Below, one piece after another: positions 10,716 through 40,131 of a DNA stretch of 64,000 nucleotides. Under the pieces are notes generated by a model. The model ran no database searches and was not told where the DNA came from. It saw nothing but the letters and a program-made list of their open reading frames with translations. The translations under genes were made by a program, and so were the position numbers. The stretch comes from Octopus sinensis (taxonomy: Eukaryota). The stretch covers positions 41,664,001 through 41,728,000 of the forward strand of contig NC_043012.1 in assembly GCF_006345805.1 (NCBI RefSeq), read 5' to 3'. Each line of letters begins with the position of its first letter. Position 1 is the first letter of the stretch.

Positions 10716-10830
10716 ATATATATATATATGTATATATATAAGTATATATATATGTATATATGTATATATGTATATATATAAGTATATATATATATGTATA
10801 TATGTATATATATATAAGTATATATATTTA
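10330..10830. repeat. (TATG)n/(TA)n compound microsatellite
   Basis: Direct inspection. Confidence 0.95.
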
Positions 10831-11311
10831 TTGAAATGGATAAATGAATTATCTTGTTACGGATTATTCAAAATTTAACCGATACCTGGGTAGCAAAAAT
10901 CACAACAGAAAAAACACGGTTGAGGTTACGACCATGGGGTGTCGCAACCGTGCCTTAGCGCGGATAATTGAAGTTTTATATATTTAGTGAAGGGAAGAAA
11001 TGGAGCTGAACGAAGATTCTACAAAATTCCTTTTTATTATTTTCTACACATGTTTCAAAGGCTGCAAATTTCCAAATTCGGATTGAATAAGGAGACCATT
11101 TTGCAGCTTTCTCTTCAGCATTTGTTTGGTTGCTGCGCATTTGTTTGGAGATTTAAATTCCTGGTTTTCCTGAAGAGAAAGCTGCAAAATGGTCTCCTTA
11201 TTCAATCCGAATTTGGAAATTTGCAGCCTTTGAAACATGTGTAGAAAATAATAAAAAGGAATTTTGTAGAATCTTCGTTCAGCTCCATTTCTTCCCTTCA
11301 CTAAATATATA
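10828..11311. mobile_element. Fold-back Penelope-like pLTR fragment (same family as 32193-33775)
   Basis: Perfect inverted arms ~10978-11119 and 11170-11311 (mirror ORFs 10987..11244 and 11044..11301). 10828-10977 is the reverse complement of a homologue of 33625-33775. Confidence 0.8.
11165..11248 (+). ncRNA. Type I hammerhead ribozyme
   Basis: ttttc-CTGAAGA-gaaagctgcaaa...tttgcagccttt-GAAA-catgtg-TA-gaaaa; all three stems pair. Confidence 0.8.
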
Positions 11312-11336
11312 AGTATATATATATATATATGTATAT

Positions 11337-12020
11337 ATCACAATCAAGGAACGGCCATAATAGGCCATTCACCCACTAGAAATAACAGCCAAAAGCTTCA
11401 ACCGCAAAATAACATCAATTCCGTAAACCAGGAGAAAATTAAAAAACATTTACCCTGTAATTTCTTATACGATGCACCGTTTCATCTACTGTTTAATGGT
11501 AAACTAACCTGATTAAATTAAATCAAGCCAATCTTCCATAGGCCCTTAGAATCATCAGTAAGAAATAGCCAAGTCGGAACAGATATTTTCACGAGGCATT
11601 TCCGTCCCTGCCTCGGCAATATCTGACCTAAAATTTTCAAATCATCGCACTCGCGCCAAATTTATCGGCAGCAAATAAATATAAGCCGCCGATTCCATTA
11701 CGGAATTAACCAGAAAATTCATAATTAATCAATATAGGGTGGCAAAAAATTTTGTAGAATTTTTTTGCCACCAGCGGCCTAGTGGGAAAAAATTAAATAG
11801 TCATAGACCATTTTTAAGTTCAACATCACAATCAAGGAACGGCCATAATAGGCCATTCACCCACTAGAATAACAGCCAAAAGCTTCAACCGCAAAATAAC
11901 ATCATTCCGTAAACCAGGAGAAAATTAAAAAACATTTACCCTGTAATTTCTTATAAGATGCACCGTTTCATCTACTGTTTAATGGTAAACTAACCTGATT
12001 AAATTATTGATTAATTATAT
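11337..12020 (-). repeat. ~488-bp non-coding unit, ~1.4 tandem copies, hammerhead-bearing (retrozyme-like)
   Basis: atcacaatcaaggaacggcc begins at ~11337 and again at ~11825. Flanked by (TA)n. No meaningful ORF. Confidence 0.75.
11460..11566 (-). ncRNA. Type I hammerhead ribozyme with extended stem II
   Basis: Minus strand: atttctta-CTGATGA-ttcta...tagat-GAAA-cggtgcatcg-TA-taagaaat; 8-bp stem I. Confidence 0.8.
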
Positions 12021-12090
12021 ATGTATATATATATATATATACAAGTATATATATATATATATATAATATATATATATATATATTATATAT

Positions 12091-12137
<47 letters not shown>

Positions 12138-12162
12138 TATATACATATATATATAATACTTA

Positions 12163-12194
<32 letters not shown>

Positions 12195-37737: not shown

Positions 37738-37739
<2 letters not shown>

Positions 37740-40129
37740 CAATATAGGATGAAGTCCCTTACTCTACAGCAAAGGAATTCATCAGGAAGCGTGGCAGTAT
37801 ATTTTAAAAAAACCGTTACGGTTGCAATAACATCATATAATAAGGGCTAAAGAGGGTTATTCTAAAGCCAAATACACTGCTTTATCCACTTATAATCCGC
37901 TTGTTACAGGAAAATTGAAACTGAAAACGGGCAACTAACTTTAGAAAATTTAAATTTCGTTATCTCTATATTGAATCAATTTCGGACTTAATCTTATAAA
38001 AAAGATATATTCCTTCTTCAGTAGAAATTTCGATGGGATATAAATAAAATACTCACGTATGATCATGGAAAAAGCACAAGCTAAAAACATAACTACACTT
38101 GAGTACATCATTTATATCTAAAAATAAAAATTCTTTGGTCAGCCTCAGAAAACAACGTCCAGACCTTTCGCCGCTACAAATTGTAATGGTTACCAGTCCT
38201 CCTGTAGCAAGCATCGAGTTTACTACTAAGCAATATAGGATGAAGTCCCTTACTCTACAGCAAAGGAATTCATCAGGAAGCGTGGGCAGTATATTTTAAA
38301 AAAACCGTTACGGTTGCAATATACATCATATAATTAAGGGCTAAAGAGGGTTATTCTAAAGCCAAATACACTGCTTTATCCACTTATAATCCGCTTGTTA
38401 CAGGAAAATTGAAACTGAAAACGGGCAACTAACCTTTAGAAAATTTAAATTTCGTTATCTCTATATTGAATCAATTTCGGACTTAATCTTATAAAAAAGA
38501 TATATTCCTTCTTCAGTAGAAAATTCGATGGGATATAATAAAAATAACTCACGTATGATCATGGAAAAAGCACAAGCTAAAACACACTACACTTGAGTAC
38601 ATCATTTATATCTAAAAATAAAAATTCTTTAGCTCTTTAGCCCTTAATTATATGATGTATATTGCAACCGTAACGGTTTTTTTAAAATATACTGCCACAC
38701 GCTCCTGAATGAATTCCTTGCTGGAGTAAGGGACTTCATCTATATTGCTTAGTAGTAAACTCGATGCTTGCTACAGGAGGACTGGTAACCATTACAATTT
38801 GTAGCGGCGAAAGGTCGGGACGTTGTTTTCTGAGCCTGACCAAAGAATTTTTATTTTTAGATATAAATGATGTACTCAAGTGTAGTTATGTTTTTAGCTT
38901 GTGCTTTTTCCATGATCATACGTGAGTATTTTATTTATATCCCATCGAAATTTCTACTGAAGAGGAATATATCTTTTTTATAAGATTAAGTCCGAAATTG
39001 ATTCAATATAGAGATAACGAAATTTAAATTTTCTAAAGGTTAGTGCCCGTTTTCAGTTTCAATTTTCCTGTAACAAGCGGTTATAAGTGGATAAAGCGCA
39101 GTGTATTTGGCTTTAGAATAACCCTCTTTAGCCCTTAATTATATGATGTGTTATTGCAACCGTAACGGTTTTTTTAAAATATACTGCCCACGCTTCCTGA
39201 TGAATTCCTTTGCTGTAGAGTAAGGGACTTCAGCCCTATATTGCTTAGTAGTAAACTCGATGCTTGCTACAGGAGGACTGGAACCATTACAATTTGTAGC
39301 GGCGAAAGGTCTGGACGTTGTTTTCTGAGGCTGACCAAAGAATTTTTATTTTTAGATATAAATGATGTACTCAAGTGTAGTTATGTTTTTAGCTTGTGCT
39401 TTTTCCATGATCATACGTGAGTATTTTATTTATATCCCATCGAAATTTCTACTGAAGAAGGAATATATTTTTTTATAAGATTAAGTCCGAAATTGATTCA
39501 ATATAGAGATAACGAAATTTAAATTTTCTAAAGGTTAGTTGCCCGTTTTCAGTTTCAATTTTCCTGTAACAAGCGGATTATAAGTGGATAAAGCAGTGTA
39601 TTGGCTTTAGAATAACCCTCTTTAGCCCTTAATTATATGATGTATATTGCAACCGTAACGGTTTTTTTAAAATATACTGCCCACGCTTCCTGATGAATTC
39701 CTTTGCTGTAGAGTATAGGGACTTCATCCTATATTGCTTAGTAGTAAACTCGATGCTTGCTACAGGAGGACTGGTAACCATTACAATTTGTAGCGCGAAA
39801 GGTCTGGACGTTGTTTTCTGAGGCTGACCAAAGAATTTTTATTTTTAGATATAAATGATGTCTCAAGTGTAGTTATGTTTTTAGCTTGTGCTTTTTCCAT
39901 GATCATACGTGAGTATTTTATTTATATCCCATCGAATTTCTACTGAAGAAGGAATATATCTTTTTTATAGATTAAGTCCGAAATTGATTCAATATAGAGA
40001 TAACGAAATTTAAATTTTCTAAGGTTAGTTGCCCGTTTTCAGTTTCAATTTTCCTGTAACAAGCGGATATAAGTGGATAAAGCAGTGTATTTGGCTTTAG
40101 AATAAACCTCTTTAGCCCTTAATTATATG

Positions 40130-40131
<2 letters not shown>
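37738..40131. repeat. ~495-bp tandem array (~1.8 units on -, then ~3 units on +), one hammerhead per unit; retrozyme-like
   Basis: agcaatatagg at 37738 and 38229. Orientation flips at ~38630. ctctttagccc at ~38633, 39124, 39618 and 40108. TA tracts on both sides. Confidence 0.9.
38950..39015 (+). ncRNA. Type I hammerhead ribozyme (further copies 39445-39510 +, 39936-40001 +, 37962-38028 -, 38457-38523 -)
   Basis: atttcta-CTGAAGA-gga...atctt....aagat...tcc-GAAA-ttgattcaa-TA-tagagat. Confidence 0.8.

Follow-up and report, generated by a model that had tools for sequence, protein, structure and literature searches.

Positions 11337 to 12018 of the 64,000-nucleotide stretch of Octopus sinensis DNA analyzed here (the window) hold 1.37 copies of a 488-bp unit with (TA)n on either side, as an earlier note made from the letters alone had described (a direct repeat of about 488 bp in about 1.4 copies, flanked by (TA)n). 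The stretch 11825-12006 repeats 11337-11520 at an offset of 488, 487 or 486 nt, with one substitution and two 1-nt indels. The unit has 37% GC and a longest Met-ORF of 26 amino acids and is non-coding. The short inverted piece that the note had seen at the right end is also present, 12005-12018 being the exact reverse complement of 11721-11734. The features of the locus are as follows.

11305..11336, no strand: left (TA)n-rich target flank, common to the neighboring hammerhead element
11337..11824, minus strand: full 488-nt unit, arm A of the insertion (repeat comparison, ORF scan)
11337..11348, minus strand: site A, a fixed 3' end lying 131 nt 3' of the cleavage site and reading ..TTGTGAT before (AT)n; putative RT start 1
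11349..11370, minus strand: predicted hairpin immediately 5' of site A
11460..11566, minus strand: predicted type I hammerhead ribozyme (stems I-III and core; U.U at 10.1/11.1)
11721..11737, minus strand: site B, the second fixed 3' end, reading CTATATTGATTAATTAT and then (AT)n, 104 nt past site A; putative RT start 2
11738..11772, minus strand: long hairpin of the 104-nt tail, immediately 5' of site B
11825..12006, minus strand: unit positions 305-488 of a second, incomplete copy, forming the 5'-truncated end of arm A, with the 3' half of the hammerhead only and G>T in stem III
12005..12018, plus strand: 14-nt arm B, head-to-head with arm A, terminating at site B and overlapping arm A by 2 nt
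12016..12194, no strand: right (TA)n target flank

The inverted piece at the right end is a second arm, primed at site B, and the locus would be one insertion event made up of a 670-nt arm A and the 14-nt arm B. There is only one complete hammerhead, because the second copy begins at unit position 305, lacks CUGAUGA and carries the G>T change in stem III, and with a single complete ribozyme the window locus is likely a dead-end daughter. Sites A and B both lie in predicted single-stranded stretches directly 3' of hairpins, and in the hairpin preceding site B the pair at unit positions 55/85 is altered on both sides in 6 loci. The folding z-score of the unit is -6.75 (0/100 shuffles equally stable); the fold of the 488-nt circle, which the earlier note had suggested computing, gave a z of -8.5 over 25 shuffles, with -6.6 for the opposite strand.

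A different two-arm hammerhead element adjoins this locus at 10821-11312. It has a 143-bp perfect inverted repeat (10976-11118/11170-11312), a hammerhead core at 11170-11243 on the plus strand and a left arm that is ∼156 nt longer, in effect a longer tail, and its relatives are found in L220, L286, and L295.

The Predicted Hammerhead Ribozyme

The minus-strand hammerhead proposed in the earlier note, with an 8-bp stem I, a stem II domain of ∼70 nt and a near-palindromic stem III, was found in all its parts. Stem I pairs 11566-11559 with 11467-11460, the core consists of CUGAUGA at 11558-11552 and GAAA at 11483-11480, and between them lies a branched stem II domain of 68 nt (11551-11484). The palindromic stem III, formed from CGGUGCAUCG, has 4 bp with A15.1-U16.1 and a UGCA loop, and the GUA cleavage triplet places the predicted cut between 11468 and 11467. 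At 10.1/11.1 the motif has U.U, and the canonical G10.1-C11.1 pair, described as highly conserved and as a feature of PLE and metazoan hammerheads (PMC4209133), is absent. A strict hammerhead scan did not pick up the motif at 11460..11566 because it demanded a pair at 10.1/11.1, and Rfam, at the gathering threshold over the whole window and at E<=10 over 10800-12100, returned no hammerhead family, only generic hairpins. Across copies, unit position 274 is T in 156, A in 118 and C in 2, and unit position 341 is T in 244, C in 40 and A in 9. The U..U layout suggests a tolerated variant, since the hammerhead of a coding PLE family of the same genome has it as well, together with the UA cut.

The core is intact in 266 of the 273 copies that span it, stem I shows a compensatory U-A>C-G change in 6 loci of one subfamily, and none of 70 locus-fixed variants falls at the 11 core positions, where ∼1.6 would be expected. 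Because the family is so young, this conservation is weak evidence for a real ribozyme. Depletion of pair-breaking variants across the unit was not significant (22 vs 27, p = 0.10), nor was selection at the level of structure across the unit. The active fold (-30.9 kcal/mol) lies 3.4 kcal/mol above the minimum free energy fold (-34.3 kcal/mol), in which the core is sequestered. Such sequestration, as modeled, would help a circle to stay closed, and blocking of the ribozyme fold is described for plant retrozymes, viroids, and some mussel circles (PMC7229834).

Size and Sampling of the Family

A 24-mer of the unit has 1,213 exact matches in the 2.7-Gb genome, compared with 0 for the reversed control. 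The loci read comprised 39 best matches, among them the window locus, every one of the 38 loci defined by pattern on contig C1, and a further 16 on contigs C2 and C3. Two loci were common to the best-match and C1 sets, and L031 (a 99.8% duplicate of the window locus) and L111 and L112 (duplicates of L110) were dropped, leaving 36 C1 loci and a total of 89, out of roughly 500-600 as estimated from 80 matches in the 38 C1 loci. L031 lies on a small contig, and L110, L111, and L112 are three identical copies of one C1 locus; in both cases the copies are segmental duplicates or redundant haplotigs.

Copies are ∼92-100% identical to the window unit, and there is also a subfamily at roughly 90% identity. 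Arrays reach 17 units and arms up to 8.3 kb, and 49 of the 89 loci contain at least two full units. Two or more complete hammerheads in succession, the published mark of an active retrozyme (10.64898/2026.07.22.740005), thus occur in the family, although not at the window locus. Public sequencing runs under five organism labels contain the unit sequence, and no RNA run is listed among them; in the assembled contigs of four runs, one contig of 478 nt crosses the head-to-tail junction, which fits a tandem array or a circle equally. By its sequence, this young and non-coding tandem repeat of high copy number is most fittingly classed with the non-LTR retrozymes.

Two Fixed 3' Ends and Their Pairing

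The earlier note had expected the start points of genomic copies to be circularly permuted, and this was rejected: the 150 arm 3' ends in the 89 loci lie at two fixed sites, A and B, 104 nt apart, and the 5' ends alone vary, being scattered across the entire unit. In ribozyme sense, an end was classed as A from 18 nt before to 12 nt after that site, and as B at 95-112. In 61 of the 89 loci two arms stand head-to-head and each ends at A or B, and 60 of these 61 pair A with B (60 A+B, 1 A+A, 0 B+B); 4 loci combine A with some other end (A+other), and the loci with a single arm end at A in 21 cases (one-arm A) and at B in 3 (one-arm B). The unbiased census of the 36 C1 loci gave 25 A+B, 1 A+A, 0 B+B, 1 A+other, 7 one-arm A and 2 one-arm B. 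Were the arms to choose their sites independently, the probability of at least 60 A+B loci among 61 would be 3e-17, and for C1 alone (25/26) p = 4e-7. Even among the 21 one-arm-A loci, 4, including the window locus, have a tiny B arm, compared with 4 of 1,486 control windows at TA runs.

(TA)n adjoins 149 of the 150 A or B ends. Where two arms meet, they overlap by as much as 12 nt or are separated by up to 28 nt. The exact A or B ends are kept even in multi-unit arms, and a copy diverged by 10% likewise ends at B. Single contigs of three runs from other studies (X1, X5, and X10) pass into loose (AT)n at 11721/11724 or 11824/11825; the ends are therefore no artifact of this assembly. By analogy, the two-site ends match the internal priming and "tail" signature of Penelope, whose RT is reported to start at two positions within the RNA, which delimit the genomic tail (PMC11167929), a tail of 30-40 bp that is often present at one end only of inverted insertions (Craig et al. 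2021, PMC8557442).

A Single Unit, Probably a Circle, as the Likely Template

When 410 aligned pieces were compared with the column-majority letters, 292 variants were fixed, being present in every unit of the locus that covers them, 318 were singletons and 53 were partly shared. Among 206 full units, the substitution distance was 0.46% when the two arms of one locus were compared, as against 0.67% inside single arms and 2.4% from locus to locus, and the 49 multi-unit loci carried 36 haplotypes. An exact genome-wide search was made for 4 of 8 candidate sample-private variants. One had 8 matches, all at its own locus (4+4 in the two arms, 8/8 units), and another had 7, again all at its own locus (2+5, 7/7 units); the other two each had 4 further matches outside their own locus. 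Since a new variant arises in one unit, its fixation along an insertion and in both inverted arms needs passage through a single unit. The cleavage site is crossed by 134 of the 150 arms, and at least twice by 71, so that the template must be continuous there.

A ligated circle would explain the single-unit passage and the continuity at the cleavage site most simply, and the template was likely one monomer copied repeatedly, probably a circle. The earlier note had proposed reverse transcription of a circular hammerhead RNA. The haplotypes, the private variants and the read-through support its retrotransposition and, as likely, its monomeric circle; the permuted ends that formed part of the proposal are absent. 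A-to-I editing was considered as the origin of the locus-fixed variants and gave no clear signal (A>G 13, T>C 14 and G>A 10 of 67). Repeated or skipped blocks and short inversions inside arms in L063, L106, L167, L065, and L103 suggest template switching by the RT.

The same Penelope-type two-site priming could also act on a linear template, either uncleaved multimers from homogeneous arrays or cleaved monomers with RT jumps, the ribozyme being perhaps slow or dead; we consider this unlikely. The non-canonical 10.1/11.1 pair and the competing fold speak for it, as do the published reports that ribozyme mutants still insert and that uncleaved RNA is the main substrate in vitro (PMC11167929), and that 1 of 9 tested Xenopus retrozymes cleaved (10.64898/2026.07.22.740005). 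So too do the two of the four tested variants that are carried elsewhere in the genome and a slight clustering of arm stops around the cleavage site (10/308 passages vs 1.5%), which has an uncorrected p of 0.02 and is exceeded in another interval. A further point in its favor is a 4-unit higher-order pattern that occurs twice within a 13-unit arm (L068:3975-7880) and reflects either a multimeric template or a later local duplication; together with the 53 partly shared variants it goes beyond what a pure monomer circle explains. This assembly may also lack a source array with the private variants, and an RT that jumped from one linear monomer to the next would produce marks similar to those of a circle. 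Against a linear template stand the two variants fixed in both arms with no other carrier in the assembly, arrays of up to 8.3 kb, and the 36 haplotypes of the 49 multi-unit loci, whose fixation throughout each array requires repeated single-unit passage.

The repeated block in L068, and the variants shared by neighboring units in L177 and L181, would also fit a minisatellite-like history, a model raised by Li et al. (10.64898/2026.07.22.740005), in which the insertions were short at first, and unequal crossing-over and gene conversion of the DNA later lengthened and homogenized the arrays. This is very unlikely here, given that the same private variants occur on both inverted arms, that the distance between arms is no larger than that within them, and that multi-unit arms retain their exact A or B ends.

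Coding Penelope-like Elements and the Search for a Helper

The search for a helper comprised a GIY-YIG scan, in which 150 of 5,029 candidates were scored, three PLE families and a third retrozyme-like family. The coding PLEs of this genome have an RT with a C-terminal GIY-YIG domain and terminate at (TA)n, some with a tail of ∼35 nt and some lacking one. One young family (L214-L218) has five intact 781-amino acid RT+GIY-YIG frames that are 98-100% identical, and its 3' end contained no canonical hammerhead core by our scan; an overlapping upstream frame of up to 479 amino acids was also seen in it. A second coding family shows two arms whose ends are 26 nt apart (a 26-nt tail) in 3 of 30 loci.

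PLE protein matches were found in the flanks of 6 of the 89 loci, five of them at a distance of 435-2,064 nt. In the sixth, L059, a 5'-truncated PLE whose tailed end passes into (TA)n forms the left arm, and a 488-nt unit ending at A forms the right one. The junction lies mid-ORF, the PLE piece is broken and 93-98% like its relatives, and the PLE family concerned has its own, different pLTR. This single case fits a co-insertion and a nested insertion alike. Two further candidates were rejected: a unit near a PLE end in L371, considered as a pLTR, is a separate insertion 1 kb away, and the L181 flank, considered as a partner arm, was read as a separate small element. A chimeric head-to-head insert at L342:440-3250 joins an arm of the third hammerhead family to a 5'-truncated RT/GIY-YIG arm, both into (TA)n; the RT/GIY-YIG arm contains a minimal hammerhead-like motif, and its PLE differs from that of L059.

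Fixed ends were, in the earlier note, to be the mark of an ordinary pLTR always attached to a Penelope ORF. The ends are indeed fixed, yet none of the copies in the 89 sampled loci stands as a terminal repeat behind an ORF of its own. The termini of 110 PLE loci showed no homology to the unit, and the three PLE families had no pLTR or 3' end homologous to it (best E 0.35). The unit could still be the pLTR of an autonomous PLE missed by the sample, the copies being its 5'-truncated products, as the ends, the tail, the inversion and the (TA)n targeting are all PLE features, and the sample covered 89 of roughly 500-600 loci and 150 of the 5,029 GIY-YIG candidates. We can nevertheless hardly credit this, because arms of up to 17 units pass from unit to unit and never into the N or C terminus of an ORF, the only PLE match abutting a copy (L059) is mid-ORF and from a family with a different pLTR, no PLE terminus in the 110 loci resembles the unit, and the unit itself encodes at most 26 amino acids.

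The Penelope-like helper protein of this family is thus a putative one, since no PLE terminus in the 110 loci resembles the unit and the scored candidates were 150 of 5,029. That the family is a non-autonomous hammerhead repeat mobilized by PLEs is, all the same, very probable.

Other Hammerhead Families of the Genome

The window contains a second array at 37738-40130, built from a 495-nt hammerhead unit that has the canonical G-C at stem II and 903 first-look candidates in the genome. All 21 loci read for this family have an end at the family's own site A, one of them with a tiny B arm, and in two-arm loci the second end is at or near B or, in 2 loci, at an alternative site. This is the same head-to-head, two-site architecture as in the 488-nt family, and the fixed ends follow the cleavage site at similar distances (131/235 nt in the 488-nt unit vs 139/239 nt in the 495-nt unit). 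The earlier note had seen no shared sequence between the two, and this holds in part: similarity over the whole unit is not significant (global z 1.5; 30 of 300 shuffles equally good), so that the units are not detectably homologous overall, but CCCTATATTG.TTA following the hairpin at site B is common to both and the end distances match. A third, older hammerhead family (L214:1640-2060; L312-L341), with ∼90% identity among its copies and 3,770 first-look candidates, is 67% like the 495-nt unit over 184 nt and ends after a hairpin at a CTACATTA motif.

Discussion

Both the retrozyme class and its link to PLEs are already known. For metazoan non-LTR retrozymes, circles have been proposed to be copied into tandem cDNA by a PLE RT (Cervera & de la Pena 2020, PMC7229834), and retrozymes have been linked to pLTRs by homology in work that calls the mechanism unresolved (Li et al. 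2026, 10.64898/2026.07.22.740005). The 488-nt family resembles the elements described in these two papers in its low GC, its non-coding tandem units with one type I hammerhead each, its dispersal as anything from partial copies to long multimers and its co-occurrence with PLEs. The unit length slightly exceeds the 150-450 bp given in the first (PMC7229834) and falls within the 51-972 bp of the second (10.64898/2026.07.22.740005). In contrast to the main-text descriptions of non-LTR retrozymes, it has two-site fixed ends, head-to-head arms and haplotypes fixed within a locus. It also differs in its branched 68-nt stem II, in the absence of G10.1-C11.1 and in that no homologous pLTR was found, and is known here from genome sequence. 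The open literature gave no account of a counted A+B rule, a 100-nt tail or locus-private fixation in a retrozyme, although supplements (Fig. S9 of PMC7229834 and the preprint tables) may bear on this.

Like PLEs, as portrayed in PMC11167929 and PMC8557442, the family has a hammerhead followed downstream by two fixed 3' ends, inverted insertions in which one arm carries a tail, 5' truncation at variable points and AT-rich or (TA)n targets. Unlike them, it has no ORF, a tail of 104 nt rather than 30-40, and up to 17 head-to-tail units. The near-strict A+B pairing contrasts with the report of no strand difference in start site in vitro (PMC11167929). Non-autonomous Chlamys PLE derivatives such as MRC1 are likewise multicopy, head-to-tail and provided with PLE-type ends (PMC8557442). 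Their 3' ends, however, resemble those of autonomous partners, a similarity that was not found for the 488-nt unit, and the Chlamys group is reported to lack canonical hammerheads (PMC8557442), whereas the 488-nt unit contains a predicted one. As far as its sequence tells, the 488-nt family works like a PLE insertion and falls within the sequence-level definition of a non-LTR retrozyme, and is not an autonomous PLE.

The reading that we favor, and regard as probable, is that of a predicted type I hammerhead retrozyme inserted by a borrowed Penelope-like RT/GIY-YIG protein, which would copy a single RNA unit, probably a circle. Arrays would be transcribed, the transcripts would cleave themselves at GUA and the units would be ligated into 488-nt circles. 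The helper would cut both strands of a (TA)n tract, and the two 3'-OH ends would prime at internal sites, one at A and one at B. Both cDNAs would then go round the unit with the same polarity and past the cleavage site, giving multimers. The two cDNAs would stop at variable points and be joined head-to-head. Purified PLE protein is reported to cut and extend both DNA strands in vitro and is predicted to be a dimer (Frangieh et al. 2024, PMC11167929). A more specific version, which we put forward tentatively as a possibility, has a dimer of the Penelope-type protein seated on one 488-nt circle at two structured sites and carrying out two rolling-circle reverse transcriptions, one for each cut strand.

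The movement of animal hammerhead repeats and the origin of the PLE tail and inverted ends are described as open in the published accounts (PMC7229834, PMC8557442, 10.64898/2026.07.22.740005). The loci presented here provide counted in vivo rules: each start site gives rise to one arm, the two arms share a single haplotype, and copying proceeds across the ribozyme cut. They also name exact RNA sites and a DNA target for work in vitro. Should a dimer act on one circle, one mechanism would account for the origin of hammerhead satellites as well as for the PLE tail and the inverted 5' ends, and several unrelated circle families of this genome would have converged on the two-site layout. If the circle model is true, a small non-coding circular RNA undergoes two-ended rolling-circle insertion by a telomerase-related RT, and this would have a bearing on RNA-templated insertion tools.
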